Of a stretch of DNA of 29,296 nt, positions 2,588-16,615 are shown one piece after another. This DNA comes from a virus, in the UHGV virus genome UHGV-0080837; one strand, given 5' to 3'. The notes beneath the pieces are model-generated. The model was not told the DNA's origin, ran no database searches, and was given only the letters and a program-made list of their open reading frames with translations. A program made the translations under genes and the position numbers. Numbering within the stretch: the first letter of the stretch is position 1; each line of letters begins with the position of its first letter.

Positions 2588-3265
2588 ATGAATAACAAGG
2601 CAACGAAAGAGCTTTTTAAGCTCCTTCCCAAATACAAAGCTCAAAAAAACGTTAGTGCATCGAAAATCAAAAATGTTGTTATTTTCGGAGTAACTGATAC
2701 CCCACTTTGGGGCAGCATCGAACTCGTTGAACCTAAAGGGGCAACAGTTTGTGTTGACGCAATGTTTTTACAAAAACACCGACCAAAAACTGGCGGGTAT
2801 CTGATCGTTTATGAAAACGGTTATCTGTTCTATGCCCCGGAGAAACCATTTGAGGAACGCTATGGCCTGGTTAACGACGCCTCCAAAAATGGAACCACGG
2901 TCATCATTACGGATGACAACGGCGTGATGATTAATCTTACCGGGAGCGTAACTATTTCTGCTGGTGGCATCACCACCCAGCAAGAAGAAATCGACCTTGA
3001 AGCAGCCGACTTTTCTGACGCGCTGATGTGGCTGAAGGATGGCAAGAAAGTTGCCCGGCGCGGGTGGAACGGCGAAAACCAATTCTGCTGGCTGGTTCCT
3101 GAAGGACAGTACCCGGCACGAATGGAAGCCATTAAGGGATATTTCCCCGGCGATCTCGTTCCGTATGGTGCTTATTTCGCCTTAAAAAATGCACAAGGTG
3201 TAGTTGTTCCGTGGGTGCCTTCTGTAGGCGACTTACTGGCATGTGACTGGTTTGTAGTGGAGTGA
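2588..3265 (+). CDS. two-domain protein: unknown N-terminal domain plus C-terminal DUF2829 (Tad2-like) domain
   Basis: 225-aa ORF. C-terminal ~85 aa (FSDALMWLKDGKKVARRGWNGEN ... WLVPEG ... VVPWVPSVGDLLACDWFVVE) matches the DUF2829 pattern as I recall it; the N-terminal ~140 aa are unassigned. Confidence 0.6.
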   Translation: MNNKATKELFKLLPKYKAQKNVSASKIKNVVIFGVTDTPLWGSIELVEPKGATVCVDAMFLQKHRPKTGGYLIVYENGYLFYAPEKPFEERYGLVNDASKNGTTVIITDDNGVMINLTGSVTISAGGITTQQEEIDLEAADFSDALMWLKDGKKVARRGWNGENQFCWLVPEGQYPARMEAIKGYFPGDLVPYGAYFALKNAQGVVVPWVPSVGDLLACDWFVVE

Positions 3266-4039: not shown

Positions 4040-5123
4040 GAGCAATATTTATAAAGATCCGCGCTGGCTGTCGCTGGTGGAGAAATATAAAGACAATTGG
4101 GTACTGGCAGCAAAAGAATTGTTTGATATTGATTTAAGCCACCAGCAACAACAAATTGTTGAAGCTATACAGCCCAATAATGCAAAAGCTACTGTCACCA
4201 CTCCGTATGGGATCGGACGACCGCAAGTGCTTGCTGTTATTAGTACCCTTTATACGATTATGTATCCTGATTCCCGGACAGTAATTGTTTATCCAAAATC
4301 AAATGTTTGCAAAAGAGGAATTGTTGCATATGTGTGGCAATGTTGGGAGGCATTGCTGAAAAAACAACCTTTTATCATTGAGTATTTTAAGGTCGGTGAT
4401 AGCGGTCTGATGTTCAATGAATTTTGGGGAATGTGCTTTTGTAACTACCGCCTTAACTATGAAGATAGCATTGCAGGTCACTACGCCGACCATCTTTTAT
4501 TCATTATTGTGGATTCCGCACATATCAGCGATCGGGCATACAGCATTGTGTGGGCAAGCATGACTAGTGGTGATTCACGCATATTGCTCACTTCAATTCC
4601 GTCACCAGAGGAAATAGGCTTTTTTTATGATTCACATCATGGACGTGCTTTAGCTGAAGATAATCCGAGTGGTGTATATAAAGCCATTAAGCTGAGTGCG
4701 GAGGATTCACCATTTATTACCCAAGAATATCTTGATCATTTTGCCGAAAGGTATGGCGGGCGAAATAGTGATGACTATCGTCGTATGATTCTTGGTGAGT
4801 TCCCTGGTATTAGGGAGGCTGTTCTTGAATCAGATATGCCGAAGACAATGCGCTTTTCGATGCCTGATGGTAGTGAATGGACAATGCCATTACGAGTGAT
4901 AGCCCGGCATCATGCGCAGCACCACGCCAAAAAACATGGCGTCACGACATTAGAATGGTTGAAATCGCACACTATTCCACTCTTCACTGCAGATCACAAT
5001 GCTATCATTGAGTGGGCAAAAACAATTCCGTGGGAGCATGTCGCTGAATATGCTCACATGCTAAAACCGCCGAAAGACAGGCACGAAATTAGCTGGCTGA
5101 CAGCCGAAAAAATCATTGAATGA
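4029..5123 (+). CDS. hypothetical protein (364 aa from the ATG at 4029)
   Basis: The track ORF 3738..5123 overlaps the previous gene in another frame; the in-frame ATG at 4029 (MATKSNIYKD...) overlaps the upstream stop by 11 nt and is the likely start. Contains a Walker-B-like hydrophobic stretch ending in DS (LLFIIVDSAH), but no P-loop. Confidence 0.5.
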   Translation: MATKSNIYKDPRWLSLVEKYKDNWVLAAKELFDIDLSHQQQQIVEAIQPNNAKATVTTPYGIGRPQVLAVISTLYTIMYPDSRTVIVYPKSNVCKRGIVAYVWQCWEALLKKQPFIIEYFKVGDSGLMFNEFWGMCFCNYRLNYEDSIAGHYADHLLFIIVDSAHISDRAYSIVWASMTSGDSRILLTSIPSPEEIGFFYDSHHGRALAEDNPSGVYKAIKLSAEDSPFITQEYLDHFAERYGGRNSDDYRRMILGEFPGIREAVLESDMPKTMRFSMPDGSEWTMPLRVIARHHAQHHAKKHGVTTLEWLKSHTIPLFTADHNAIIEWAKTIPWEHVAEYAHMLKPPKDRHEISWLTAEKIIE

Positions 5124-5130
5124 TATCAAC

Positions 5131-5164
5131 AAAAAGCCCGCCAGGTCTGGCGGGCTTCTTTATG
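5131..5164. terminator. bidirectional intrinsic terminator between convergent operons
   Basis: Stem GCCCGCCAG (5136-5144), loop GTC, CTGGCGGGC (5148-5156), flanked by AAAAA upstream and TTCTTTAT downstream. Sits between the + stop at 5123 and the - stop at 5169. Confidence 0.65.
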
Positions 5165-5168
5165 CGCC

Positions 5169-5558
5169 TTAAATCACAGGTCTATAATCAAACTCCCCAC
5201 TTCGGGCATCATTAATGACATGAGTGATCACACCAAACACAGCATTACTGCCCGTGCATCCATCGTCATCTACTGGTAACGCCTCTTTCTTCCCGGTGCT
5301 TAAATCCTCCAGGTGCTGGCGCGGATACTTCCTGTATCTCTTTATGCGATATTCACCCTCCATAGCGCATATAAGCAGTGAACCATCAACCGGAGTAAGT
5401 GAGGAATCAACCACCAGCAAAGCACCTTGCAATATTCCCTCACGGTGATGGCTGTCTGCCGCCCGCATGAAGTAGGTCGCGGAAGGATGTCTGATTAGTT
5501 GCTGATCAAGAGAAATGCGGCTCTCTGCATAATCCGCCGCAGGAGAAGGGAAGCCCAT
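5169..5558 (-). CDS. humD: UmuD'-like S24-family protein (P1 HumD-type SOS mutagenesis accessory protein)
   Basis: 129-aa ORF with a LexA/UmuD C-terminal-domain-like core (LLVVDSSLTPVDGSLLI ... EGEYRIKRY). A consensus SOS box lies 19-38 nt upstream of its ATG. Confidence 0.8.
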   Translation of the reverse strand: MGFPSPAADYAESRISLDQQLIRHPSATYFMRAADSHHREGILQGALLVVDSSLTPVDGSLLICAMEGEYRIKRYRKYPRQHLEDLSTGKKEALPVDDDGCTGSNAVFGVITHVINDARSGEFDYRPVI

Positions 5559-5576
5559 AGCGTTTTACCTCAATGA

Positions 5577-5596
5577 TACTGTTTATTCATACAGTA
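5577..5596. promoter_or_regulatory. LexA operator (SOS box) in the humD promoter
   Basis: TACTGTTTATTCATACAGTA at 5577-5596: perfect CTGT-N8-ACAG spacing with an AT-rich centre. Confidence 0.8.
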
Positions 5597-5681
5597 TACA
5601 TTGAAAAGGCATAGTTTGTGAAAGCGGGGTTTGTAGGCGCGCCACGCTGGGGGCTAATCACATTTCTCCCCCATCTTGCCG

Positions 5682-5933
5682 TTATTTTTTTGGTGCATCC
5701 TCGTTCTGATACACCGGATCGCTCCCTTTTGGCAACTGGAGGCTTAACTGCCGGTAGTGCCGTAGCCGTTCCATGAAATAGGCGCGCAGATTCTCTGGTT
5801 GCTCGCGGGCTACCTGTTCAGCTATGACAGGTATGTTCAATCGCTCTTTGTACGCCACACCGCTGGCAGCCAGATCAACGTTAACCTTATCCCGTTCTTC
5901 CTGACTTTTAGCTGCAATATTCCAGTCGCTCAT
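5682..5933 (-). CDS. hypothetical protein
   Basis: 83-aa ORF, tightly spaced after the upstream gene (stop at 5936, start at 5933). Confidence 0.45.
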
Positions 5934-5935
5934 AT

Positions 5936-6208
5936 TTAAGGCTCACATTTCCAGATGGTATTCTGAACACCAGAACCGGGCGCTAGATGAGGGTTAGCGT
6001 TCGCGCTATGCTGATATACTGCTTTAGACTTCCCATATTGCTGACAGGCTTTATCTGCGGTTTTTTGCAGGCTATCCAGGCCATACCAACCATCTGACTG
6101 TATGCTTACCTTTTCACCGTCGTTGTATTGCACCATTGCACACCCAGATATAGCCAGTATCGCGCCGACAATAACGCTTTTCCATAAAACTCTATGCAAC
6201 ATATACAA
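5936..6208 (-). CDS. small lipoprotein, YgdI/YgdR-like (DUF903-like)
   Basis: Signal peptide with lipobox (ILAISGC); mature N-terminus [18 protein letters not shown] resembles the YgdI/YgdR pattern. Confidence 0.45.
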
Positions 6209-6247
6209 AAATCCCCTCTGTGAATTGAGGGGATTTTAGCATGGTGA

Positions 6248-7006
6248 TCAGATATCGGCCTTATTCGGAATTTTATCAGCCACCAGCGGCAATAAAGCCT
6301 TCGCCATTTCATGAACCAACATGGCATCAATGACGCCTAGCGTATGGCCCGGCTTAATCTTTAATGCGGCCTCAAGATAGCCTCTTTCCAGAGTGGTTTT
6401 TACGCTTTTCTTGGGCGATTGTTGGGAACTATCCGGAAAATCCGGATGGTTGCCAGCCTCGTAAGCTACCCGCAGCCAGTGCATGAATGTTTCAGTGGAC
6501 ACACAACCACAGTCCACATCGATTTTCCCGCGTTGCTGTTCCAGCCATTGCCCAAAATCCAACCTGTAAGTCTTACTTTCAAGTTCATCACCATTGAACT
6601 CGACTTTCTGCGACGCTATGAGAGCTGATTCGTATTGTTCGCGAGTGACAACTGACAGGTATTCATCGCTATCAAGGTCACCAATTGGAAGCTCAATCTC
6701 ACAACAAAAATTGCGCCCAAAGAACGTGTCTTTTTTGTGGTCTGAGCCAAAAGCAAAAGTCGCGCATGGCGCCATTAAATTGGCACTGAGCAGGCGACAA
6801 TCGATCATACCATCAGGCCACCCGCCGCACTTAGGCAGCTCCTTCACTAACAAGTCGATAAGCTTCATTTTTTTATCATCTTTGCAAGCCGCCAAAGCCA
6901 TTTGGGCAAGTGCCAATACTTCATCTGCCGTATATCCAGCACCGTGACCATACATTTCGATACGGGCGATAATCTCTGATATGCGTTCTTTAGTGATTCT
7001 TGTCAT
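6248..7006 (-). CDS. hypothetical protein
   Basis: Track ORF 6248..7021; the ATG at 7004-7006 (MTRITKER...) gives an ATGA overlap with the upstream stop and is the likely start. Confidence 0.45.
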   Translation of the reverse strand: MTRITKERISEIIARIEMYGHGAGYTADEVLALAQMALAACKDDKKMKLIDLLVKELPKCGGWPDGMIDCRLLSANLMAPCATFAFGSDHKKDTFFGRNFCCEIELPIGDLDSDEYLSVVTREQYESALIASQKVEFNGDELESKTYRLDFGQWLEQQRGKIDVDCGCVSTETFMHWLRVAYEAGNHPDFPDSSQQSPKKSVKTTLERGYLEAALKIKPGHTLGVIDAMLVHEMAKALLPLVADKIPNKADI

Positions 7007-7377
7007 TTCTTTTTGCGCCATTTCTTTTCACATTCCTTAGTCCATTTTTCAATGTTCATTTTGGCAATATCAGTCATTCCATCACCTAAGAAATACTTTT
7101 TCCGGTATGCCTTGCACTTAAACCACACGACAACAGCCACCAGCCAGAAAATAAAAGGCCATACAGCAATACCAACTACAGCCGCGATAAAGCCCAATAG
7201 CCATAAATGAAGCTCTCCAACTTCTGTTTGCGGCAATATTCTTAAAGAATTAAACAGCAGACTGAACGAATGGTCGTATGCATTGGCGGTATAAGACATG
7301 CAATCCATATAATTAAAGTCATAGCCTGCGGCTGCCGCCCATAATGGGCGGTCAAGAAAATGTTTTAGTGTCATCAT
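7003..7377 (-). CDS. small membrane protein
   Basis: 124-aa ORF with one strongly hydrophobic segment (LWLLGFIAAVVGIAVWPFIFWLVAVVVWF) and a Lys-rich C-terminus. Confidence 0.45.
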   Translation of the reverse strand: MMTLKHFLDRPLWAAAAGYDFNYMDCMSYTANAYDHSFSLLFNSLRILPQTEVGELHLWLLGFIAAVVGIAVWPFIFWLVAVVVWFKCKAYRKKYFLGDGMTDIAKMNIEKWTKECEKKWRKKK

Positions 7378-7383
7378 ATAAAC

Positions 7384-7677
7384 TTAAGGTTCAGACCAGT
7401 TATCTTCAATAGCAATGCTTAATCTTTGTAGCCATTCTGCTAATTTCAGCATTGCTTCTCTTTCGCTTAAACCACGAGGAAAATCATCAAGCGAAATTGT
7501 TGGCTTGAAGCCCCCGTAATTATCCATTTCAACGGTCAGATTTTGCTCCAGCACGGTATTCCTTACGCGGCTATTGTGCCGAAGCAAATATACTGAACGT
7601 GATTTATTGGTTTTGTGGTCGAATGTATATTCGGTAAGTATCATCTGGCTTCCGCCATGATTATTACCTCGCCACAT
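7384..7677 (-). CDS. hypothetical protein
   Basis: 97-aa ORF; GGAG 5 nt upstream of the ATG at 7677. Confidence 0.45.
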   Translation of the reverse strand: MWRGNNHGGSQMILTEYTFDHKTNKSRSVYLLRHNSRVRNTVLEQNLTVEMDNYGGFKPTISLDDFPRGLSEREAMLKLAEWLQRLSIAIEDNWSEP

Positions 7678-7689
7678 AATTACTCCGTG

Positions 7690-8106
7690 TTAATAAGAGA
7701 AATATACCGTTGCAACACTGTTATATTGGTCGAACGAAATAGCATTTACTTCATAGCTGGTGGGCAGCTTCTTACCAAGAATGTAGCCAGGCCATGAGTT
7801 CCACGGAATTTCTGTACGGTCGTCGTCTTGCCACATTACGCAACCAAGAGAGCCAACCATTTCACCATATCGCTTGCCACAAGTAACAAAGCCGATATTC
7901 GGCTTTTCTTGTGTTGCTGATACCATGGTGGTATTGGCAGATGCATTGATTGCAGTACGCCGCGCTTGCTCGCTAGCGATAGAAGCATTTACTGCCGCCG
8001 TGGTCGCTGCTGTTGCCGCCGCTCCAGCGGCAACAACTGACGCGTGGGATAAATGACTGGCTGATAACATAGCCAGAAAAATAATAGCTCTTTGAAATTT
8101 AGCCAT
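7690..8106 (-). CDS. secreted protein with N-terminal signal peptide
   Basis: Within track ORF 7690..8184; the internal ATG at 8106 gives MAKFQRAIIFLAMLSASHLSHA (a typical Sec signal) followed by an Ala/Thr-rich linker. Confidence 0.45.
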   Translation of the reverse strand: MAKFQRAIIFLAMLSASHLSHASVVAAGAAATAATTAAVNASIASEQARRTAINASANTTMVSATQEKPNIGFVTCGKRYGEMVGSLGCVMWQDDDRTEIPWNSWPGYILGKKLPTSYEVNAISFDQYNSVATVYFSY

Positions 8107-8132
8107 TGATTTAACCTTTATTGCGAACATAT

Positions 8133-8354
8133 TTAGCTGTGTGTTGCCGATGTGCGGAGATTCTCTTCTATCAATTCCACGCATTCTGACCGACGAACAA
8201 ATAATTCTTCTCCGTTATGAATTACGACATAGCCGTAAGCGGTTTTACGCATCACATCGAACTCATCCCATACGGAAATACCGCACTCTGCTAACGAGCA
8301 ATCCAAATAATCTTCCGGATGCTTGTCGGTGTTATTAATGATGCGAATCCTCAA
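8133..8354 (-). CDS. hypothetical protein
   Basis: 73-aa ORF in operon context. Confidence 0.4.
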   Translation of the reverse strand: MRIRIINNTDKHPEDYLDCSLAECGISVWDEFDVMRKTAYGYVVIHNGEELFVRRSECVELIEENLRTSATHS

Positions 8355-8391
8355 ATCTTTTCACCTTTGACGGCAAGTTGCAGGTTAGCCA

Positions 8392-8652
8392 TTACCTCAC
8401 CTCCAGTCTCCATACCGCCTGACCAATCCGGCTGGCATGGGTATCTTTGGATACTGTTCCGTCTTTAGCCATCTCCATAAGAATTTTGCGCAAATCTGCC
8501 GAGCGCCATTCTTCATCAGGAAATTCCTTCTCCATTGCCAACCGCAGATTCCAGGTTGCTATCGTGAATGGATATTCCCCGCCGAGAGCTTTCTCTTGCA
8601 GGGCCGCACGGGAACGTATCACCTGCAAAACCTTCTCTTTTACATCCATCAT
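8392..8652 (-). CDS. hypothetical protein
   Basis: Track ORF 8392..8724; the ATGATG at 8647-8652 is preceded by AGGAGG and overlaps the upstream stop (ATGA), so the start is taken at 8652 (MMDVKEK...). Confidence 0.45.
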   Translation of the reverse strand: MMDVKEKVLQVIRSRAALQEKALGGEYPFTIATWNLRLAMEKEFPDEEWRSADLRKILMEMAKDGTVSKDTHASRIGQAVWRLEVR

Positions 8653-9239
8653 TTTGCCTCCTGCGGCGGTTCTGGTAGCGGCATCCAGTGTGATGGTATC
8701 CACGACGCACCAGGTATTACCCACCCATCATTAGCGTCAGGATGCCCCGGGATGTAAGTCGCCCATTTCATTCGCCAGTCACCTTTCCTGTCAAACTCCC
8801 TGGCAACAAGAACGGCTGTTTTGGTATCCGGCATTCGCTCACTACAGCTTATCCAACTATCCGGAATTACCGGATAGTTGCGCATTGCGACCTTTAATGC
8901 CTCATAGAAGCAACCTTTCAGATTGTTGAACTGACGCCCATTTAGCGGGCCGTGTTCAGTCAGCATGTTGTGTAATTTCCATGCCGCGTCGTTTACTTCG
9001 TTGGATGACAGGGGAGGCAACTTGTAAGTTTGGCTTACAGGTTCGGCACCATGAAGCATGGCAGCACGGCAGGCGTTCCAGCCAGCTGTTCGCCCAAGCG
9101 AGTAAACTTCAGATGGCTCAAGATAATCAATGTCATGCCCGTCCTCATCGTCGTTCTCAGGTAATGCAGCAGGTACTACTGGTACTGGAGGGGGCGGCAT
9201 AAACAGGAATAACGTCCGCTTGCTCTTTATTGCTTTCAT
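8649..9239 (-). CDS. DUF551-domain phage protein
   Basis: C-terminal region (WISCSERMPDTKTAVLV ... GWVIPGASWIPSHWMPLP) fits the DUF551 pattern. The start is uncertain (alternative ATG at 9200); the track ORF overlaps the upstream gene by about 80 nt. Confidence 0.5.
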   Translation of the reverse strand: MKAIKSKRTLFLFMPPPPVPVVPAALPENDDEDGHDIDYLEPSEVYSLGRTAGWNACRAAMLHGAEPVSQTYKLPPLSSNEVNDAAWKLHNMLTEHGPLNGRQFNNLKGCFYEALKVAMRNYPVIPDSWISCSERMPDTKTAVLVAREFDRKGDWRMKWATYIPGHPDANDGWVIPGASWIPSHWMPLPEPPQEAK

Positions 9240-9417
9240 CCGTTAAAGCCCAGAATAATTTCCCGGCCGGATGTTTGAAAATATAAGCAACTGGATCTGC
9301 TTCCAGCGATGCCAGTGCAATTTCATAAGCCCGGCGTTCAATATTGTCTCGAACGTCCAGGCTGCTGATACGCTCTTTGATTTCTTTAATCAGTTCTTTG
9401 TCGGTTAAAGTGGTCAT
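9157..9417 (-). CDS. hypothetical protein
   Basis: 86-aa ORF, ATGA-coupled to the upstream gene. Confidence 0.4.
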   Translation of the reverse strand: MTTLTDKELIKEIKERISSLDVRDNIERRAYEIALASLEADPVAYIFKHPAGKLFWALTDESNKEQADVIPVYAAPSSTSSTCCIT

Positions 9418-9623
9418 TTGTTAATCCTCAAAACTTTATGCCCGGGCGCAAAAGCACGTGTTTTGTCTTTGCTTATTCGCCAGCCATCCTTACGTGCCTC
9501 TTTTGCACAGCCAGCCCATGACGTACCGATATATTCACCGAAGTCTGGCACTGGATATACACCTTCCGTACACTGGCGGCAGTCACAATAGAGATGCATG
9601 GTGTAACTTGCGGCAATAGCCAT
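9414..9623 (-). CDS. small Cys-rich protein
   Basis: Start placed at the ATG at 9621-9623 (MAIAASYTMHLYCDCRQC...), preceded by AAGGAG; the track ORF extends to 9695 in an overlapping frame. Confidence 0.4.
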   Translation of the reverse strand: MAIAASYTMHLYCDCRQCTEGVYPVPDFGEYIGTSWAGCAKEARKDGWRISKDKTRAFAPGHKVLRINK

Positions 9624-9624
9624 A

Positions 9625-9813
9625 TCACTCTCCTTTAGTGCGCAAATGGTTTTTCCAGCGGTTTTGCGCCGCGCTGGGCTTTTTGCAAAAACCACAATCC
9701 ATCATCCCGTAATATTTCATCAACCCCATCCGTCGGTTGCTGAGTCTCACCCACTGCCAGACGCCAGGAGCGTTTCTACGAACTAACAGAATCTTTGCTT
9801 TACGGTTTTTCAT
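9625..9813 (-). CDS. small basic protein (MKNRKAK N-terminus), copy 2
   Basis: 62-aa ORF whose ATG overlaps the stop of the upstream paralog (ATGA at 9810-9813). Confidence 0.35.
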   Translation of the reverse strand: MKNRKAKILLVRRNAPGVWQWVRLSNRRMGLMKYYGMMDCGFCKKPSAAQNRWKNHLRTKGE

Positions 9814-9986
9814 CTTACTGCGTACCCTTTCTTCCGCCTGTTCTGTGACGCAGTAGGCTTACGCTTTGCGGCAAAAGCCACCTGACCAAATGGATGGAGT
9901 ACCGCTATCTTATGGTTGCTAATAACCAGCTCCACCACACGCACAGGTCGCTGTAAAAAAAGTCGTTTTGCCTTACGGTTTTTCAT
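9810..9986 (-). CDS. small basic protein (MKNRKAK N-terminus), copy 1
   Basis: 58-aa ORF, below the ORF-track cutoff, translated by hand from the ATG at 9984-9986. Its first 7 codons are near-identical in DNA to the downstream copy. Confidence 0.3.
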   Translation of the reverse strand: MKNRKAKRLFLQRPVRVVELVISNHKIAVLHPFGQVAFAAKRKPTASQNRRKKGYAVR

Positions 9987-10158
9987 CGCTTTGCTCTCCT
10001 GCGTCTCTTTGCTGCTCGTCGTGCCGCTGCAATACCGGTATGGCGGCGCTTTGGTGCTGGGGTGATGTTGTCAGCCATCAGGACCTGTGGCTTTGCAATT
10101 AGCGCAGAAGCCCAAAAACGAGTCGGGTACGGTAACAAGCCAATACATGCCACACGCA

Positions 10159-10605
10159 CTACTCACCTCCGTTGATGCGAATGCCTGTTGCAATGCTGTT
10201 TATGATGCTGTCAGTGCATGGGGTAGAAAGCTGGGCATCTCCAGCAATTTTCATGACATCAACATCTGCATATCGAATACCGAGGTGTATCAGACCGGCT
10301 ATACCTGACTTAAGCCGAGCATTTTCCATAAACAGATCCTTTGCCCGCTGTTTTTCTGCCTCAAGCTCAACGCGCAACTTCCCTACCGTTAGCGCAATAT
10401 CCTCGTTCTCCTGGTCGCGGGATTTGATGTATTGCTGGTTTCTTTCCAGTTCATCCAGCAGTGCCAGCGCGATATCTGGCGAAAAGTGCTTCATAAAATC
10501 GTTAAGCGCATTAATTCGCTGATCGAAGGGCATTACAGGTGCTTCACCAGCAATTTTTGTTTTTTCAGCGATTTCACGAAGCTTTTGATAATCAATCTTG
10601 CTCAC
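10159..10605 (-). CDS. Ea22-like phage protein (paralog 3)
   Basis: GTG start preceded by AGGAGG; N-terminus MSKIDYQKLREIAE shared with the neighbouring paralog; coiled-coil middle. Confidence 0.55.
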   Translation of the reverse strand: MSKIDYQKLREIAEKTKIAGEAPVMPFDQRINALNDFMKHFSPDIALALLDELERNQQYIKSRDQENEDIALTVGKLRVELEAEKQRAKDLFMENARLKSGIAGLIHLGIRYADVDVMKIAGDAQLSTPCTDSIINSIATGIRINGGE

Positions 10606-11189
10606 TGGTTGCCTCCTTTGCGAAGCTGTTCAGCAATACTTACGCATATCTCTGCGCCTCTAATCAGCCCCGGAACGTTCTTGTTTGGCCCAACTTCACC
10701 ATCAACAAAATCAATCATCGCGTTACGAGCCATATCCACCCCCTGCGCACGTACTTCAGCCAGGAGAGCGTCGGTAGCTGGGGTTTCCGTGAAGTTGTCC
10801 TCCCAACCGTAGTACTCCTGACGACAGAAGTTATTAAATTCCTTCTCCGACTGTTTAAGCGCCGCATTCTCCACTGCCAGCGCCGCGCACTTGGCCTCAA
10901 GAGCGGCAACCACTTCCTGATGGTCTTTGTACTTAACGTATGAGCCGGAGATGTCATCACCTTCGGTGTTTAGCCATGCGTCATTGCAATTCACTGCGTA
11001 GGTTCTGATGCTGATGCTCTCCCGCCCCTGACAGACGCCAGGCCAGTCAATAAAGTATCCGCAATGCCTACCCTCAGACGTGCGCGCAGGATAAATGCCG
11101 TTATGACCCGGCAAAATATATGCTACCCATTCATCTTGCGTTGCCTGTTCCGCCGCCTCGCGCAGTTCTTGATAGTTAATTTTGCTCAC
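10602..11189 (-). CDS. Ea22-like phage protein (paralog 2)
   Basis: GTG start preceded by AGGAGG; N-terminus MSKINYQELREAAE; C-terminus ATDALLAEVRAQGVDM ... QLRKGGNQ shared with the 14072..14506 paralog. Confidence 0.6.
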   Translation of the reverse strand: MSKINYQELREAAEQATQDEWVAYILPGHNGIYPARTSEGRHCGYFIDWPGVCQGRESISIRTYAVNCNDAWLNTEGDDISGSYVKYKDHQEVVAALEAKCAALAVENAALKQSEKEFNNFCRQEYYGWEDNFTETPATDALLAEVRAQGVDMARNAMIDFVDGEVGPNKNVPGLIRGAEICVSIAEQLRKGGNQ

Positions 11190-11475
11190 TGGTTGCCTCC
11201 GCTTCCCACGTTTTCAGACTTTCACCACAGAATGGGCAAAATGAAACTCGAATAGGCGATTTAGAAAATTCACCAGACCGCAGCATGATCAGGTCCTGTG
11301 AATGAATTAATTCATGGTTATAGACTTTGTATTTCAGCAGGCCTTTTCGCGTCGTGTATTCAGCATCCTGCTCCAGAGATTGTGCCAGCGCCGCGCACGG
11401 TTCTATTTTTCTGCCATTAATCAAACAAGTGGAGATTCTGCACTTTGCAGCTCCGTCACCGTTACCTTGACTCAT
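11176..11475 (-). CDS. hypothetical protein with CxxC pairs (possible zinc ribbon)
   Basis: 99-aa ORF with CRISTC and CPFCG motifs. Confidence 0.4.
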   Translation of the reverse strand: MSQGNGDGAAKCRISTCLINGRKIEPCAALAQSLEQDAEYTTRKGLLKYKVYNHELIHSQDLIMLRSGEFSKSPIRVSFCPFCGESLKTWEAEATSEQN

Positions 11476-11488
11476 TGCGTTGTTCCCA

Positions 11489-12484
11489 TCAGTTATTAAA
11501 CGTGATCACTCCGCGCTCGATGGCGAAGTCGAAAAGCTGGTTAGCGACTACATAAAGGCGTATGCCATGTGCTTTTTCCCATGCCCGGACATCGTGTTCT
11601 GCGCTTCTGGCGCAGTCATCGCAAAGAGGAACAGCCCAGCGGTCGTGTTCGTTTAACGAGCGGGCGCGGTACATGAACGGGTGGTTAACTTTGCTACCGC
11701 ATCCGATGCACGGACGAGAAACCACAAAGCGGAGATAAGCCGGGCTTTTTCCGAGTAAGGTTTTTGGACGGCGCATATATAGGAGGCCAGAATCCTCATC
11801 TACAGACAGGTTGACGATCTGCTCTGCGGTTATGTCCACCAGCTCGCGCGTACTGCGCTCCCAGGTGATATCTGATTCTTTCAGCGTACCGGTAGGGATT
11901 TCAGTTTTTGGCTGACAAAATGCAATGCGCCCGGCTTCATCTGGCAGCTCATCTTTCAGATTCCGGCGAATGGCCCAAAAAGTGAGTTCAACCATGCTCA
12001 GATCGCGTTCTGGCGGTAGTTTTAACTCGCTCGCAGCCCAGTTCATAACCCAGTTGGCGCGATTCAGGGATAACTGGTCGTCCAGCTTGCTGTACCCCTT
12101 CATCATGTATTCCGCATCATGCTTCCAGCACAGGCGAACGGCAGAGCCGTTATAGAAATGAGTGGTTAGCTGGTGGCTGCAATCGCGCTTATCGTGCGCC
12201 TGGCAATCGTGGATATTGGAACTTACCCAATGAACAAGCGAATCTTCACCGCCTAACGCGTTAAATACGCGCTCGCTTTGAAAAAATGGTTTCAGCGACT
12301 GGTTGGCAACCAGCGAATAATTCAGATCCACTACGCCATCTGGAGTGTTTTCAGCCTGTTCTCGCGGAAGTGGTGAGATAATGAAACGGCGACCTGCGCC
12401 GATGTAGTTGCTGGTGGGCTTGTCTACCGGAAAGACAGCCACACCAGTTTCATTTACGACATATGGGGTGATTATTGCACTCAT
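11489..12484 (-). CDS. DUF968-like prophage protein
   Basis: 331-aa ORF with C-terminal Cys/His cluster (CIGCGS ... CDDCARSAEHD) as in lambdoid DUF968 proteins. Confidence 0.5.
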   Translation of the reverse strand: MSAIITPYVVNETGVAVFPVDKPTSNYIGAGRRFIISPLPREQAENTPDGVVDLNYSLVANQSLKPFFQSERVFNALGGEDSLVHWVSSNIHDCQAHDKRDCSHQLTTHFYNGSAVRLCWKHDAEYMMKGYSKLDDQLSLNRANWVMNWAASELKLPPERDLSMVELTFWAIRRNLKDELPDEAGRIAFCQPKTEIPTGTLKESDITWERSTRELVDITAEQIVNLSVDEDSGLLYMRRPKTLLGKSPAYLRFVVSRPCIGCGSKVNHPFMYRARSLNEHDRWAVPLCDDCARSAEHDVRAWEKAHGIRLYVVANQLFDFAIERGVITFNN

Positions 12485-12527
12485 AATGCATACCGACTCT
12501 GTTTTGTTCCGAGTGGTAAAATAATAT

Positions 12528-12558
12528 GTTAGAAAACTAAAATCAATATTCTAACGCA
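12528..12558. promoter_or_regulatory. operator dyad with leftward promoter-like elements (internal promoter)
   Basis: TGTTAGAAAA (12528-12537) and TTCTAACGCA (12549-12558) in inverted orientation. Minus-strand TTGATT and an AT-rich -10-like hexamer overlap it. Confidence 0.4.
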
Positions 12559-12581
12559 TTTTGAGTGCGTAAATGATTTGA

Positions 12582-13274
12582 TCAGACTTTAAGCTGCCCT
12601 CCCTTCACCTGCATTAGCGTCAGATTTCCACAAAAAACCGCGCCCGTGTCTATGTAGTGCTGATTCCAGTATGCTTTTGGTCTTCGTACCGGTGTGTGCC
12701 CAAAGATAAAGCGATCTGCGCCTGTGATTTCTCCACCAATGCCATCTATCGAATCACCGACGCGACTGCGCGACCAGACAACATCAAAAAGCGATACATC
12801 CTTACCGAACTGGTACTCTCCACCTGGATAGTCGGCATGGGCTATAACGATAGTTTCATGTCCGGTGTTCAACTCAATGATATATGGCAGACGCTTTACC
12901 AGCTCCACCAGCGCCTTGGCTAATATTTCCTGATCAGTGTCCAGCATGAAGAACCATTGTCCGCCATTCATTAGCCAGTTATTCACGTTGCCATCAGGAC
13001 TTAACGCATCAAGCATCAACCGCTCATGGTTCCCCATTACTGCCCTGAACCAGGGCATCTGCAATAGTTCCAGACATTCGACATTTTCAGTACCGCGATC
13101 GATAAGGTCGCCAACCGATATCAGTAAATCCTGCGCCGGGTCAAAATCCACACGATGGAGTTCGGACATCAGTCTGGTGTAGCAACCATGCAGATCACCA
13201 ACTACCCATATGTTTCTGTAGCCAGAACCATCAATACGGCTATATAAATTCACTTCATGCATAGCCTGGATCAT
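12582..13274 (-). CDS. Ser/Thr protein phosphatase, bacteriophage lambda PPase family
   Basis: Near-colinear similarity to lambda phosphatase from memory: [48 protein letters not shown]. Start taken at the ATG at 13274 (ATGA overlap with the upstream stop). Confidence 0.9.
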
Positions 13275-13582
13275 GCGGCAACCTTCTCCCGCAGCCAGAT
13301 ACAAACTGGACCATCTTCAGTGTCATGAATAGAGCCAACAAACCAGCCTTCACCCTCTGGTCGCTCCGGTTCCCAGGCGGCAATATCGGGACCAGCTGCG
13401 TCCAGATCAAAATCATCTTCATCCATACTGCGAATAGTCCACTGAAGATTATTTTCCTTCATCCAGGCGTCAAATTCCTCAGTGGATATATATTCACGAC
13501 CTGCGCAAAACTTTTCATACTCCGGATGTGTCCAGCAGCCATATTCATCACGTTCTACCGGCATTTCTTTAATGATGCTCAC
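13271..13582 (-). CDS. hypothetical protein
   Basis: 103-aa acidic ORF in operon context. Confidence 0.45.
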
Positions 13583-13803
13583 TCTTCATCCTCCAAGTCG
13601 GCAACGGCATCCATCACATCAGAACCGCGAATAACCTCAAAAGCACGGCAGGCCATTTCAAACACCTGTTGTTCTTGCGGATGCGGTGACTCCCAATACT
13701 TAAAACCAGGTCGATGCTCGTAACCCATCATGGAATAAAAATCGCCAGCAAGTTCAATCGCGGCATCAACAAGTTCGCGATTTGTCATCGTCTGTTCTGT
13801 CAT
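13579..13803 (-). CDS. hypothetical protein
   Basis: 74-aa ORF, ATGA-type coupling on both sides. Confidence 0.4.
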   Translation of the reverse strand: MTEQTMTNRELVDAAIELAGDFYSMMGYEHRPGFKYWESPHPQEQQVFEMACRAFEVIRGSDVMDAVADLEDEE

Positions 13804-14075
13804 TTTGTTTTCTCCTGTCTGAACATCACTATCATCAGGTCGCCTTTTGTCGCTATCCTGGCTGTTGTGCCAGGCTCAATGCGGCTAAGTTCAAATGCGT
13901 CATAGAACGCCTCTAACGCTTTCTGGCGTCTCTCCTGTTTGCGGCGCTTTCCCCACTGCTTTAGAAAAACAGAGGCCGCCCACTTCCCCGCACTGAACAT
14001 GATGTAAAGCCAACCGAGAAGTGCCAGACCGGAATTTAGGAGCGTATCGATCGTTATTGTCGTGTCGATATTCAC
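13800..14075 (-). CDS. small membrane protein
   Basis: GTG start in the same AGGAGGCAGCCAGTGA context as the Ea22-like genes; hydrophobic segment LLNSGLALLGWLYIMFSAG. Confidence 0.4.
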   Translation of the reverse strand: MNIDTTITIDTLLNSGLALLGWLYIMFSAGKWAASVFLKQWGKRRKQERRQKALEAFYDAFELSRIEPGTTARIATKGDLMIVMFRQEKTK

Positions 14076-14506
14076 TGGCTGCCTCCTTTGCGAAGCTGGT
14101 CGGCGAACAAACGTACACTAGACGCTTCACTGCGTAGAAACTTAACGGCATAATCAAAACCACCTCGTTCTGCGTCGTCTGCTCCGTTGTCGAGGTTATC
14201 TGCGTACATCTCTACCCCCTGCGCCCGTACTTCAGCCAGGAAAGCATCGGTGGCTGGAATGGGCTTTTGTGGTGATATAGCAATACGTATTGTCTCAAGG
14301 TCTGGATCTGTTTCCGCTGTTGGCACCTTGATATAACCCATCTGCACCCCATTCATGATGAACCTGCGACAGTCATCACATATCGCCTTTAGCCCTGCAT
14401 TCTCCGCCGCCAGCGCCGCGCGCTCTTTCTCAAGACGGAAAATTTCCGTCACATACTGAGCGTTACGCTCCGCCAGTTGCTCTGGCGTTAAACCTTCAGA
14501 CTTCAT
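14072..14506 (-). CDS. Ea22-like phage protein (paralog 1)
   Basis: ATG at 14506 preceded by AAGGAGAG; C-terminus ATDAFLAEVRAQGVEM ... QLRKGGSQ shared with the paralog at 10602..11189. Confidence 0.55.
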   Translation of the reverse strand: MKSEGLTPEQLAERNAQYVTEIFRLEKERAALAAENAGLKAICDDCRRFIMNGVQMGYIKVPTAETDPDLETIRIAISPQKPIPATDAFLAEVRAQGVEMYADNLDNGADDAERGGFDYAVKFLRSEASSVRLFADQLRKGGSQ

Positions 14507-14813
14507 GCACTCTCCTTTCGAAATAAACGTACTGATTAATCATGCCCAGGGGCATTTCGAGTTTTTCTGCGATCTCACGGCGGGGAACACCGCACTGATG
14601 AAGCTGCCGCGCCAGCTCTATATCGCTCTGCCGATATTTGGCTGACTGGTGAAAGTCACCTTTCAGAATCATTCTGATCCCCAGCTCTCGCGCTTTAGTC
14701 CTGACGGCATCACCGGTACGACCGATCAGCTTCCCGATACTCTCGACCGTCATAGTTCCGGCGCACTGGCGGAGTATCATGATTTCTGCCCTTCCCCATC
14801 CCCGCCAGCTCAC
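14496..14813 (-). CDS. putative helix-turn-helix DNA-binding protein
   Basis: 105-aa ORF with two HTH-like segments (TVESIGKLIGRTGDAVRTKARELGI and VPRREIAEKLEMPLGMI). Family not identified. Confidence 0.4.
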   Translation of the reverse strand: MSWRGWGRAEIMILRQCAGTMTVESIGKLIGRTGDAVRTKARELGIRMILKGDFHQSAKYRQSDIELARQLHQCGVPRREIAEKLEMPLGMINQYVYFERRVHEV

Positions 14814-15433
14814 GCCGACATCCTCTGAGACATAAACTCCACAAAACGAACTGCATCTTCAGAAACAACGCCGCATGACTTCAGATAATTCATTGCGTCA
14901 TTAGGTAGCGGATTAGTTGGTTCGGCATTTGCCAGGGATTGAGATAAACGCGTGATTAATTTGACCATTCTCCGCTGTCGGAGGTTGTATCCTTCGGCTA
15001 AAGACAGGTAACTGGAAAGGGTATTGCTTAAGCGAGCGCGAAGCTGATCCGTGCCGTGACATTCAATAGCAACATCACGTAACGCATCGACCAGTTCGCG
15101 GTAAATATGCGCTGCCATTCTGCAATCTGTGTCAGATGGCGCTTCATAAATTACCGTCAGCTCCAGTTTTTCAGCCAGGGCGTGTTCTGCTCGTGCTCCT
15201 GCGGACGCTTCCCAGCCCTTAAGCAGATAGATAGCATCAGCAGAACGCACCATTGCCAGGCAAATATCCATGTATTCACTCTGACAAAGGCCACCAGGTA
15301 ACACAGCTGGATTCAGAACGATATGCCCTTCAGACATCAGCTCGCTCGCTTTCGCATTAAACGCCGCACGGTTGTAGTCTGGATAACCAGTCATCGGCCC
15401 CGCGATGTAAATTTTCAAAACACGTTTCACCAT
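14810..15433 (-). CDS. DUF4406 / nucleoside 2-deoxyribosyltransferase-like protein
   Basis: N-terminus VLKIYIAGPMTGYPDYNRAAF ... VLNP ... LLKGWEASAGARAEHALA matches the DUF4406 pattern. Start taken at the ATG at 15433, which overlaps the stop of a small upstream ORF (TGATG). Confidence 0.55.
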   Translation of the reverse strand: MVKRVLKIYIAGPMTGYPDYNRAAFNAKASELMSEGHIVLNPAVLPGGLCQSEYMDICLAMVRSADAIYLLKGWEASAGARAEHALAEKLELTVIYEAPSDTDCRMAAHIYRELVDALRDVAIECHGTDQLRARLSNTLSSYLSLAEGYNLRQRRMVKLITRLSQSLANAEPTNPLPNDAMNYLKSCGVVSEDAVRFVEFMSQRMSA

Positions 15434-15588
15434 CAAAATTTCCCCAAAATCGTGACGCAAAACATAAGCACTGCGAAAAGCTCAATACCAAGCTCAAGTA
15501 GCGCCAGCGCCCCGAAAAACAACACATAGAACAGGCCAATCTCATTCACAGATGGCTGGTGGATCGCACTTAAAGCTATAAGCATCAT
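15433..15588 (-). CDS. small hydrophobic leader peptide (about 50 aa)
   Basis: Hand-translated: MMLIALSAIHQPSVNEIGLFYVLFFGALALLELGIELFAVLMFCVTILGKF. GGAGG precedes the ATGATG at 15583-15588; first ORF of the leftward operon. Confidence 0.3.
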   Translation of the reverse strand: MMLIALSAIHQPSVNEIGLFYVLFFGALALLELGIELFAVLMFCVTILGKF

Positions 15589-15613
15589 GTCCTCCAAACA
15601 GTTATCAGGAATG

Positions 15614-15658
15614 ATATTAATGTTTTGTGTTAGAAAATCAATTTTGAATATCTAACCA
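15614..15658. promoter_or_regulatory. divergent promoter region with operator dyad
   Basis: Dyad TGTTAGAAAA (15628-15637) and TATCTAACCA (15649-15658). On the minus strand TTGATT, a 16-nt spacer and TAATAT form a good sigma70 promoter with a half-site in the spacer; a rightward TTGAAT -35 overlaps the other half-site. Confidence 0.5.
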
Positions 15659-15705
15659 TTTAGATCAATCATAGAAAAATAGCTGAAAAGTAAGAGGCAG
15701 CCATC

Positions 15706-16284
15706 ATGCAGAAACAGAGCTATTGGGAGAAACAGAGACAAAAAGCCATGCAAAAATTGGCTGACCCAGCCTGGCGAGAGGAACAAAGGGCAAAGCGCCT
15801 TCAACAAGCTCAACGCCAGCAGCAACGAGCGAGAGAAAAAGCCGCATCGCCTGAATATCGGCAAAAGAGAATTGAAAAAGCAAAGCAATATGACCAGCGG
15901 AGAAAAGAGAAAGCTGTATCCACTCCGTCCAAAAAAACACGCACGTCACGCGGCCTGAAGGGCAGATCACTCACAGCCGATGAACGCCGGATACAGACCG
16001 CTATCGGTACTCTCCCCTGCATTGCCTGCCATATTCACGGGCAACATAGCCCAGTGGTATCCCTGCACCATATCTTCGGGAGAACGGCAGAGAACGCGCA
16101 TAAATATGTCCTCCCTTTGTGTAAATGGCACCACCAGTACGCAGCGCCAGCCGAGGTCCGAGAACAATATCCCTGGCTGGTCCCTGTTCATGCTGACGGA
16201 AAAATAGGCGGAAAAGCAGATTTCATGCGGCACAATGCCGATGAAATGGCGTTGTATCAGATGGCGATTGAATTGATAAATTAG
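15706..16284 (+). CDS. ref: Ref-like HNH-family nuclease (P1 recombination enhancement function type)
   Basis: 192-aa ORF with a long, highly charged K/R/Q/E-rich N-terminal region followed by a Cys/His core (CIACHIHG ... SLHHI ... LPLCKWHH), matching the known architecture of P1 Ref. AAGAGG RBS. Confidence 0.55.
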   Translation: MQKQSYWEKQRQKAMQKLADPAWREEQRAKRLQQAQRQQQRAREKAASPEYRQKRIEKAKQYDQRRKEKAVSTPSKKTRTSRGLKGRSLTADERRIQTAIGTLPCIACHIHGQHSPVVSLHHIFGRTAENAHKYVLPLCKWHHQYAAPAEVREQYPWLVPVHADGKIGGKADFMRHNADEMALYQMAIELIN

Positions 16285-16296
16285 TTTTCTAACATT
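16273..16296 (+). promoter_or_regulatory. promoter-like element with operator half-site, start of the immI-like region
   Basis: TTGATA then AATTAGTTTTCTAACAT; the 15-mer TTAGTTTTCTAACAT is shared with the minus-strand promoter at 12528-12546. Confidence 0.4.
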
Positions 16297-16615
16297 TTAA
16301 GTTGAATTGAAAAATGCTCCGATGTACATTCACTACCCATTGGCACACCGGTCAACTTTTTGAGACAAACTATTTAGTTTTTCGTATGATTGCCGCCGCC
16401 ATACCAATGGCGGTGCAATATAGGTGGCTGAAAAGCCCCCGTTGACTCACGGTGTTCCAGCCTTTATTGCGCCGCCACCAGACCGTGGAACAGTCGATGG
16501 CGGCTCCGAAAGCAAGGAGTCACTACACTATGAACAGCTACTGTCTTTTCCCATCACTCGTTGTCCGCCACTCACGCGATAATCTGCATTCTTTACTCGC
16601 GCTGGGGGTGTCAAA

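Follow-up and report, generated by a model that had tools for sequence, protein, structure and literature searches.

Three genes for predicted envelope proteins beside hot in a P1-like phage-plasmid: joint module or patchwork?

Within the viral genome UHGV-0080837, three genes whose products are predicted to leave the cytoplasm lie inside a stretch of about 2.2 kb, which raises the question of whether they act together on the bacterial envelope or are simply neighbors with separate histories. The sequence analyzed (29,296 nucleotides; hereafter the window) is a P1-like phage-plasmid, with a near-identical plasmid in pPEC145_2. The block in question runs along the minus strand from 8106 to 5936, in the variable region adjoining hot–humD, and encodes in this order SP138 (138 aa), cyt97 (97 aa), TM124 (124 aa), mos257 (257 aa), and lipo88 (88 aa). 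The hot-proximal region is one of eight hypervariable regions described in P1-like elements (PMC9603915). The block shares its genomic position and its hot–humD boundary with the pmgT...upfO-hot-humD region of P1; P1 itself, however, lacks all five block genes and carries upfM/N/O and the late promoter LPhot instead, and a search of the window found no LPhot -22 box upstream of either hot or lipo88. Neighboring genes in the window include Ead/Ea22, eaa, and DUF551 types, which Stx phages carry as well.

Predicted locations and families of the five block proteins

A sequence-only reading of this DNA had described a lipoprotein, a single-pass membrane protein, and a signal-peptide protein with an Ala/Thr-rich linker, and all three were recovered here by hydropathy, motif rules, and conservation—the combination on which our topology calls are based. 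The first gene of the block, SP138 (7690..8106, minus strand; PHROG 8805), encodes a predicted secreted (periplasmic) protein, as judged from its ORF and hydropathy. Its N-terminus, MAKFQRAIIFLAMLSASHLSHA followed by serine, leads into the Ala/Thr-rich linker, and motif rules divide it into the n-, h-, and c-regions of a signal peptide, MAKFQR-AIIFLAMLSASHL-SHA, with small residues at -3/-1 and predicted cleavage between SHA and the serine. Homologues have cleavage sites TQA/S, VQA/S, and ANA/V (the slash marking the cut), and those in the virulent phages Av-05 and KW1E_UTAR bring signal peptides of their own. While the linker varies in length by indels among homologues, the C-terminal domain of ~70 aa is conserved, and Cys76 and Cys89 are invariant in the homologue alignment. 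The start codon matches the PGAP start in pPEC145_2; the AF2 model is poor (pLDDT 44.6).

TM124 (7003..7377, minus strand; PHROG 2638) is a predicted bitopic inner-membrane protein with one hydrophobic stretch of 31 residues, at about residues 56–86 (maximum Kyte-Doolittle 19-mer score 2.6). A conserved N-terminal domain, WAAAAGYDFNYMDC, precedes that stretch, and the C-terminal tail after it is basic and carries an ECEKKW motif; because the N-terminal side is acidic (charge about -2) and the tail very basic (about +9), an N-out/C-in orientation is predicted, and the layout is kept in homologues. In pPEC145_2, a single base change truncates TM124 at codon 110. The two remaining products have no hydrophobic segment: cyt97 (7384..7677, minus strand; PHROG 1258, E 1.8e-49) is a small soluble protein, and mos257 (6248..7021, minus strand), whose start is overlapped by the TM124 3' end by 19 nt, is a mosaic cytoplasmic protein, different segments of which match eight PHROGs. 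The interleaved ORFs had been called small and cytoplasmic; the second term suits both, the first does not suit the 257-aa ORF.

None of the five proteins scored above a family cutoff in Pfam, NCBIfam, or PADLOC, where sub-threshold matches were at chance level; every PHROG match was to a family of "unknown function", and PDB profile and sequence searches with all five returned nothing meaningful. These searches agree with the earlier remark that the block shows no lysozyme, holin, or spanin signature, and since no block protein has a lysis-related Pfam, NCBIfam, or PHROG match, we reject a lysis cassette.

The lipo88 gene, its upstream signals, and its prophage contexts

The last gene, lipo88 (5936..6202, minus strand), encodes a putative outer-membrane lipoprotein precursor matching PHROG 7757 (E 5e-53), with an alternative TTG start at 6208. 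Its N-terminus passes from a positively charged n-region through a hydrophobic core to the lipobox ISG/C, which fits [LVI][ASTVI][GAS]C. Across 37 homologues the signal peptides are divergent, and [GAS]-C—that is, including the lipobox Cys—is invariant, as are two further Cys. The residue at +2 is Ala here and never Asp among homologues, so that Lol export to the outer membrane is predicted. The mature part comprises 68 aa with a conserved Cys pair.

PGAP leaves lipo88 unannotated in pPEC145_2, and its Shine-Dalgarno sequence is weak, distant, and buried in a hairpin, both of which would suit a spurious ORF and a cluster that is in part an artifact. We find this scarcely credible and reject it as refuted by conservation: there are 65 homologues (65–100% identity) across Enterobacterales, with invariant lipobox and Cys residues despite divergent signal peptides, dN/dS in the mature part is 0.01–0.09 with synonymous sites saturated, and the PHROG match and a confident AF2 fold point the same way. 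Judged by these substitution ratios, lipo88 is under strong purifying selection; it is a self-contained, widely spread prophage gene, and automatic annotation misses it although it is well conserved.

Between the mos257 stop and the lipo88 start lies a terminator-like hairpin (6208..6237, minus strand) with an 11-bp stem, an 8-nt loop, and a T-rich tail, the top-ranked site of its kind in a scan of positions 5000–16500. Its 3' arm includes the Shine-Dalgarno-like GAGGGG of lipo88 (6218–6213), and its 5' arm is overlapped by an extended -10-like element, TGcTAAAAT (6233..6241, minus strand), which we read from the sequence. The hairpin is kept in almost all P1-like copies, with a G-U wobble in one variant and folding energies of -15 to -23 kcal/mol; RNAalifold on the upstream regions of diverse lipo88 lineages gave no consensus hairpin. 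A TA[TA]AAT hexamer precedes the start codon by 21–41 nt in most lipo88 loci, diverse lineages included. The -10-like element has no -35 partner and was not called by a sigma-70 scan, which needs one. We consider it a candidate promoter belonging to lipo88 and the next gene, hot (5682..5933, minus strand), a DNA polymerase III theta subunit homologue (Pfam DNA_pol3_theta, E 5.8e-34) whose start codon lies 2 nt past the lipo88 stop, with no terminator between the two.

Adjacency of lipo88 and hot recurs in P1-like and lambdoid loci. More widely, homologues of lipo88 occur in lambdoid and in siphovirus-type prophages whose hosts are Klebsiella, Enterobacter, and Serratia, where they frequently form the outermost gene of the prophage. 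It is the final prophage gene in Serratia, Enterobacter, and Phytobacter, adjoining tail-tip and lysozyme genes; in Klebsiella prophages it sits in a nin-like region next to hot; in Pectobacterium it adjoins an integrase and a Thoeris system; and one of the distant family members has a mobile-element-like context (HigB, AlpA). A tblastn search of the INPHARED phage collection gave no match, and lipo88 was found only in plasmids, prophages, and IMG/VR contigs. This moron-like placement in other prophages makes masking of a receptor or exclusion of superinfecting phages a reasonable guess for lipo88, and for lipo88 only among the block proteins.

The proximity of lipo88 to lysozyme genes in some prophages also bears on the idea that TM124, with or without SP138 and lipo88, serves an accessory lysis or lysis-timing function as a holin/antiholin-like or spanin-like protein. 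TM124 does share generic holin-like traits, being small, with a single TM segment and a C-terminal tail that is strongly basic. We nevertheless regard such a role as very improbable. No holin, endolysin, or spanin family was matched in Pfam or PHROGs, and TM124 homologues lie in early or DNA-metabolism regions, outside lysis cassettes; the distant ones come from Yersinia, Klebsiella, and Proteus phages and from an N15-like plasmid prophage, where the gene is part of the early region. As for lipo88, it is globular, unlike a Pro-rich o-spanin, it is neither nested in nor beside an i-spanin gene, and in prophages with lysis and tail genes nearby it is oriented opposite to the adjoining tail genes.

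Co-inheritance of the block genes

Whether the three envelope genes travel together was addressed by counting their neighbors in the loci retrieved from IMG/VR (80 for TM124, 80 for lipo88, and 10 for SP138). The constant neighbor is cyt97, with SP138 upstream and TM124 downstream: every TM124 locus (80/80) and every SP138 locus (10/10) has it. By comparison, only 14 of the 80 P1-like loci with TM124 also have lipo88, which P1, SJ46, and RCS47 lack; SP138 adjoins cyt97 in 2/80 TM124 loci, and TM124 occurs in 2/10 SP138 loci. More than half of the lipo88 loci (44/80) lie outside P1-like elements and contain none of the other block genes. Distant homologues of SP138 and TM124 likewise stand alone in unrelated phages. 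The linkages seen are SP138 to cyt97, cyt97 to TM124 to mos257, and lipo88 to hot. Identity of mos257 among P1-like loci ranges from 48 to 97%, as against about 95% for the flanking genes.

The same locus also offers grounds for treating the three exported proteins as one joint envelope-modifying or superinfection-exclusion module of the phage-plasmid. A hydrophobic 19-mer scoring above 1.6 occurs in only 3 of 23 leftward genes, SP138, TM124, and lipo88, and these fall within five consecutive genes; moreover, pPEC145_2 and at least two IMG/VR contigs (only two among the loci retrieved) have all three in the same order. Clustering of the export genes is only marginally beyond chance (p about 0.07 for three such genes within five consecutive positions), a spacing that could still be compatible with some functional grouping in the window element. 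Against a joint module stand the independent distribution of the genes, the terminator-like hairpin that lies between lipo88 and the rest, the distant homologues of each gene found without the others, and the failure to match known exclusion or defense families. We reject a co-inherited three-gene module on the IMG/VR distribution, and a joint function of the three proteins seems to us improbable. The suggestion of a "set" of envelope modifiers is not supported by these counts. The block had also been placed at the distal end of an accessory operon; it is indeed the distal end of the leftward accessory string, but a single operon is not supported, given the strong terminator-like hairpin between lipo88 and the upstream genes and the linkage of lipo88 to hot.

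What we favor instead, with moderate confidence, is that the block is the promoter-distal end of a recombination-prone P1-like variable region, a patchwork in which at least three units have been exchanged independently, rather than one envelope module. The genes themselves are ordinary phage accessory cargo. We infer the transcription-unit boundaries and subcellular locations, as well as any binding partner or exclusion phenotype. Under the patchwork reading, a first unit would comprise SP138 and cyt97, with SP138 passing through Sec and ending up free in the periplasm. A second would comprise cyt97, TM124, and mos257, tightly packed or overlapping genes that are probably translationally coupled, with TM124 expected to insert in the inner membrane so that the basic tail faces inward and the N-terminal domain outward. 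The third, lipo88 and hot, would be set off from the second by the terminator-like hairpin, and probably has its own extended -10 promoter, which would make it a moron-type unit. Like a moron, lipo88 is variably present among closely related genomes.

Predicted fold of lipo88 and comparison with known systems

The AF2 model of lipo88 (pLDDT 83) predicts a beta-beta-alpha-beta-beta, YecR-like fold that has a central helix and matches YecR and DUF1471-type proteins, and a fold test assigned the model to the same fold as YecR in PDB 7BGL. As modeled, then, the lipo88 fold resembles that of a flagellar-ring lipoprotein: YecR (PF13992) is an FlhDC-regulated lipoprotein that binds FlgH on the Salmonella flagellar L ring (PDB 7BGL). 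Profile alignment of lipo88 with YecR by hhalign gave a probability of 83% with signal peptides included and 39% over 28 columns once the comparison was confined to mature domains, where the score was 23.5 against 9.5 ± 1.9 for column shuffles, none of which (0/300) reached it. The Pfam YecR model did not match lipo88 (E. coli YecR scores 104.9 bits), and a Foldseek search of PDB and BFVD with the lipo88 model gave nothing significant, with YecR not ranked. The two proteins also differ: mature lipo88 has 68 residues against about 92 in YecR, whose second Cys pair is missing from it, and YecR is a chromosomal flagellar-regulon gene whereas lipo88 is borne by phages and plasmids, including those of Klebsiella pneumoniae.

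The resemblance lends itself to a literal interpretation, in which lipo88 is a phage-borne YecR analogue that sits on FlgH outside the L ring and alters flagellar function or blocks flagellotropic phages. This appears unlikely to us. Klebsiella pneumoniae is classically non-flagellate, yet close lipo88 homologues (82% identity) are common in its prophages; the Pfam model and Foldseek both fail to connect lipo88 with YecR; and no family member lay near flagellar genes in the contexts examined, although for all but one of the distant members the contig was too short to be informative. YecR itself, moreover, is of unknown function and dispensable for L-ring formation (PMC11756786). We hold equally doubtful a broader version, in which a prophage and phage-plasmid lipoprotein family diverged from YecR, lipo88 docks on a ring or pore of the outer membrane, be it the L ring or some other large assembly there, and excludes competing phages or remodels the envelope, and the promoter overlapping the terminator/anti-Shine-Dalgarno hairpin insulates the gene against read-through.

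Within the patchwork reading, Lgt/LspA would process lipo88, and the Lol pathway, on account of the Ala at +2, would deliver it to the outer membrane. There its small YecR-like domain, braced by a disulfide, would most likely bind some outer-membrane component of the lysogen. Such binding would alter the cell surface, for example by blocking a receptor, as in Cor/Llp-like exclusion, or by shielding the envelope; a role in modifying the surface or in excluding superinfecting phages is plausible only by analogy. Were lipo88 to modify an outer-membrane structure of its lysogens, this would make it a lysogenic-conversion factor that is widely distributed yet lacks annotation: many Enterobacterales prophages carry it, as do P1-like plasmids, vehicles of resistance genes as well. 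It would then also offer a first functional handle on the YecR fold. Otherwise, the locus mainly documents the way in which P1-like elements build up their variable region next to hot, out of small genes exchanged independently of one another.

Among known lipoproteins, YgdI/YgdR was the likeness first proposed, and it shares with lipo88 a similar size, a lipobox, and an apparent short N-terminal motif resemblance (NDG...SDG). We reject that identity: DUF903 was not matched by lipo88 at E<=0.1 nor by 39 family members at E<=1, and the central-helix fold fits YecR/DUF1471-type proteins. Cor (phi80/N15/T1) and Llp (T5) offer another parallel, as small phage-encoded outer-membrane lipoproteins (a location predicted for lipo88) of about 60–70 mature residues with a disulfide; in several prophages lipo88 is placed at one end, close to genes for tail-tip or receptor-binding proteins, and a promoter of its own is probable. 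In the window, by contrast, lipo88 is beside hot and far from tail genes, and searches of PHROGs and Pfam, and of BFVD and PDB by Foldseek, showed no relationship to Cor or Llp by sequence or family. The block has no homology to Bor or Lom, but lambda-type morons (bor, lom) and the lambdoid nin/ea regions resemble it in organization: in each, a promoter-like element and a hairpin accompany small genes that look autonomous, are found in some genomes and not in others that are otherwise near-identical, and in many cases specify envelope proteins.

Setting and composition of the block

P1-like phage-plasmids (Punavirus) match most of the window's length, with 13 E. coli and Shigella plasmids of ~90 kb each covering at least 80% of its first 25 kb at 95–98% identity and partial matches to phage isolates such as vB_EcoM-813R1, RCS47, SJ46, and P1. 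The block lies on the minus strand, downstream of orf73 (8354–8133) and directly upstream, in the sense of transcription, of hot (5933–5682), a DNA polymerase III theta-subunit homologue, and humD (5558–5169). Its limits in the sequence-only reading, 5936–8106, proved to be exactly the lipoprotein stop and the start of SP138. This region is one of eight hypervariable regions in a survey of P1-like elements (PMC9603915), and a neighbourhood protein search found none of the five block proteins in P1 itself. In P1, phd-doc follows humD, whereas in the window plus-strand genes for a recombinase, a dUTPase, and a Tad2-like protein converge on humD instead. The last of these (2588–3265, plus strand) encodes 225 aa with a Tad2-like (Thoeris anti-defence 2) domain (Pfam E 1.9e-22) and adjoins the dUTPase gene (2079–2573), with the Cre-like tyrosine recombinase (163–1191) upstream. 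Just ahead of the block (8360–9300), eaa and DUF551 genes are 95–97% identical to those of Stx-converting lambdoid phages, an identity showing that P1-like plasmids and lambdoid prophages have exchanged genes recently.

None of the five block proteins passed a family cutoff in Pfam, NCBIfam, or PADLOC, and their PHROG matches were all of "unknown function"; a known defence system is therefore unsupported, as is a lysis cassette, which the sequence-only reading had not considered obvious either.

Export signals and independent distribution

Three of the proteins carry export signals that are conserved in their homologues, bearing out the earlier description of envelope-targeted products. SP138 (8106–7690, minus; 138 aa) opens with a classical Sec signal peptide (SHA|S), followed by an Ala/Thr-rich linker, longer or shorter through indels, and a C-terminal domain of ~70 aa with two cysteines invariant in the homologue alignment; homologues in virulent phages have signal peptides of their own, and the protein would be secreted into the periplasm. 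Across the linker (7950–8040), AATAATT-like units have been gained or lost between homologues, a pattern typical of a low-complexity spacer, not a folded domain. Beyond the soluble protein cyt97 (7677–7384, minus; 97 aa), TM124 (7377–7003, minus; 124 aa) contains a single 31-residue hydrophobic stretch; its acidic N-terminal domain and strongly basic tail predict an N-out/C-in topology, presumably across the inner membrane. Translational coupling of the gene to cyt97 and mos257 is probable. The motifs WAAAAGYDFNYMDC and ECEKKW are kept in TM124 relatives as low as 51% identity. The near-identical E. coli plasmid pPEC145_2 differs from the window at one base in 5900–8250—at 7050, where Glu110 of TM124 becomes a stop and the conserved ECEKKW tail is lost—and tblastn matches to TM124 in SJ46, RCS47, and several P1 variants span residues 1–109 only. 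The fourth gene, mos257 (7021–6248, minus; 257 aa), overlaps TM124 by 19 nt and is a patchwork: separate segments match eight different PHROGs, and identity among P1-like loci is 48–97% versus ~95% for flanking genes, which indicates recombination within it. A comparable hydrophobic segment was absent from all other genes of the 23-gene leftward string, and three such genes within five consecutive positions (p ~0.07) is suggestive at most of clustering beyond chance.

We fetched up to 80 IMG/VR loci per envelope gene and searched each with ten neighbourhood proteins. All 80 TM124 loci had cyt97 directly upstream; 14 had the lipoprotein and two had SP138, adjacent to cyt97. Similarly, cyt97 lay directly downstream of SP138 in all 10 loci fetched for that gene, of which six had the lipoprotein and two TM124. 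About 36 of the 80 lipoprotein loci were P1-like, with hot almost always immediately downstream, and the other 44 were prophages lacking SP138, cyt97, TM124, and mos257. The coherent envelope module proposed earlier thus gives way to three independently distributed genes, found together on only two of the fetched contigs. More distant relatives are scattered likewise: a phiTE-like phage has a 58% identical SP138 relative by itself amid small genes, and others occur in Av-05 and 45-kb virulent phages; a 51% identical TM124 relative is flanked by exonuclease and Dam methylase genes in an N15-like plasmid prophage, within its early region, with weaker ones in Yersinia, Klebsiella, and Proteus phages. 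The linkages that these loci mark as real are SP138 to cyt97, cyt97 to TM124 to the mosaic gene, and lipoprotein with hot. This last adjacency occurs in both P1-like plasmids and lambdoid prophages, in both gene orders (loci L004–L007, L061, L063, L065, L067, L068, L070, L078, and L083–L085), the lambdoid copies being 67–82% identical for the lipoprotein and 51–80% for hot. The genes belong to a known class, phage accessory or moron genes, and the block would be a mosaic of such units rather than one machine.

A hairpin and candidate promoter ahead of the lipoprotein gene

The best terminator-like site in a scan of 5000–16500 was an 11-bp hairpin (6237–6208, minus) directly past the mos257 stop and ending 6 nt ahead of the lipoprotein ATG. 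Almost every P1-like copy retains this hairpin, one variant having a G-U wobble, with folding energies of −15 to −23 kcal/mol. An extended −10-like element, TGcTAAAAT (6241–6233, minus), overlaps its 5' arm, and its 3' arm carries the lipoprotein's Shine-Dalgarno-like GAGGGG. In 86 of ~113 lipoprotein loci, the 50 nt before the ATG include a TA[TA]AAT hexamer (at 21–41 nt in most types), and a C-rich tract complementary to the Shine-Dalgarno sequence usually comes after it; this pairing recurs in diverged lineages (L055, L067, L068, L070, and others). The promoter scan did not call the TGcTAAAAT site, and RNAalifold across lipoprotein lineages returned no consensus structure. The arrangement suggests a putative promoter-within-terminator "insulator": read-through transcripts would form the hairpin, terminating and masking the Shine-Dalgarno sequence, and transcripts begun ~7 nt after the −10 would lack the 5' arm and be translated. 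The lipoprotein gene would probably have a promoter of its own and be expressed from it in the lysogen.

The lipoprotein, its fold, and its possible role

The lipoprotein ORF (6202–5936, minus; 88 aa), whose stop lies 2 nt before the hot start, is unannotated by PGAP in pPEC145_2; despite this, its 65 homologues and match to PHROG 7757 (E 5e-53) clearly mark it, by sequence, as a genuine gene. The mature part has a dN/dS of 0.01–0.09, and synonymous sites are saturated in comparisons with distant copies. A signal peptide is followed by a lipobox with Cys at +1 and Ala at +2, the latter predicting that the lipidated protein is sorted to the outer membrane. Across 37 relatives, the lipobox Cys and two further cysteines are invariant and the signal peptides diverge freely. 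A full-library profile search recovered 54 relatives at E<1e-3; the 35 aligned are mostly lipoproteins of 80–104 aa, and most share an NDG, AC..GK..A, and C-terminal Cys signature. By tblastn, no copy occurred among 50,697 phage records; plasmids, prophages, and IMG/VR contigs were the sole sources of the gene.

The AlphaFold2 model (26 homologues as input; pLDDT 83, confident) predicts a beta-beta-alpha-beta-beta domain past the signal helix. This fold, as modelled, is YecR-like; the earlier YgdI/YgdR-like label is contradicted by it and by the lack of a DUF903 match for the lipoprotein or any relative. YecR is a lipoprotein on each FlgH subunit at the outer face of the Salmonella L ring (bioRxiv 10.1101/2020.12.05.413195); L-ring formation does not need it, and its role is unknown (PMC11756786). 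Profile–profile comparison with E. coli and Salmonella YecR gave 83% probability, and 39% over 28 columns centred on A-D-[KR]-A-C-Q-Q-x-G-x-x-x-A-V when signal peptides were removed; the mature-domain score (23.5) exceeded all 300 column shuffles (mean 9.5, sd 1.9). The Pfam YecR model did not match the lipoprotein, and Foldseek with our model did not recover YecR. The protein is thus probably a distant YecR relative, not one to be filed as a family member, and a modestly interesting lead as a YecR-like prophage lipoprotein that is widespread and often unannotated.

A small domain of YecR-like fold, braced by a disulfide, points to an outer-membrane assembly as the lipoprotein's binding partner. 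That this is the flagellar L ring, in a literal YecR-like role, is improbable, because prophages of Klebsiella pneumoniae, a classically non-flagellate species, commonly carry close copies. In Klebsiella prophages, the gene lies in a nin-like region near a hot homologue. In Pectobacterium (L189, 1603–5252), a homologue sits beside an integrase on an integrative element that also has a Thoeris ThsA/ThsB pair ~2 kb away, a defence-island-like context. In Serratia, Enterobacter, and Phytobacter, the lipoprotein is the last prophage gene: it borders host DNA, points the opposite way from the tail genes nearby, and lies ~3 kb past those for the tail tip and lysozyme. Across these contexts, the gene is distributed as a moron is. 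Receptor masking or superinfection exclusion, though still doubtful, is our best functional guess by analogy, since this prophage-end position near tail-tip genes parallels that of cor and llp.
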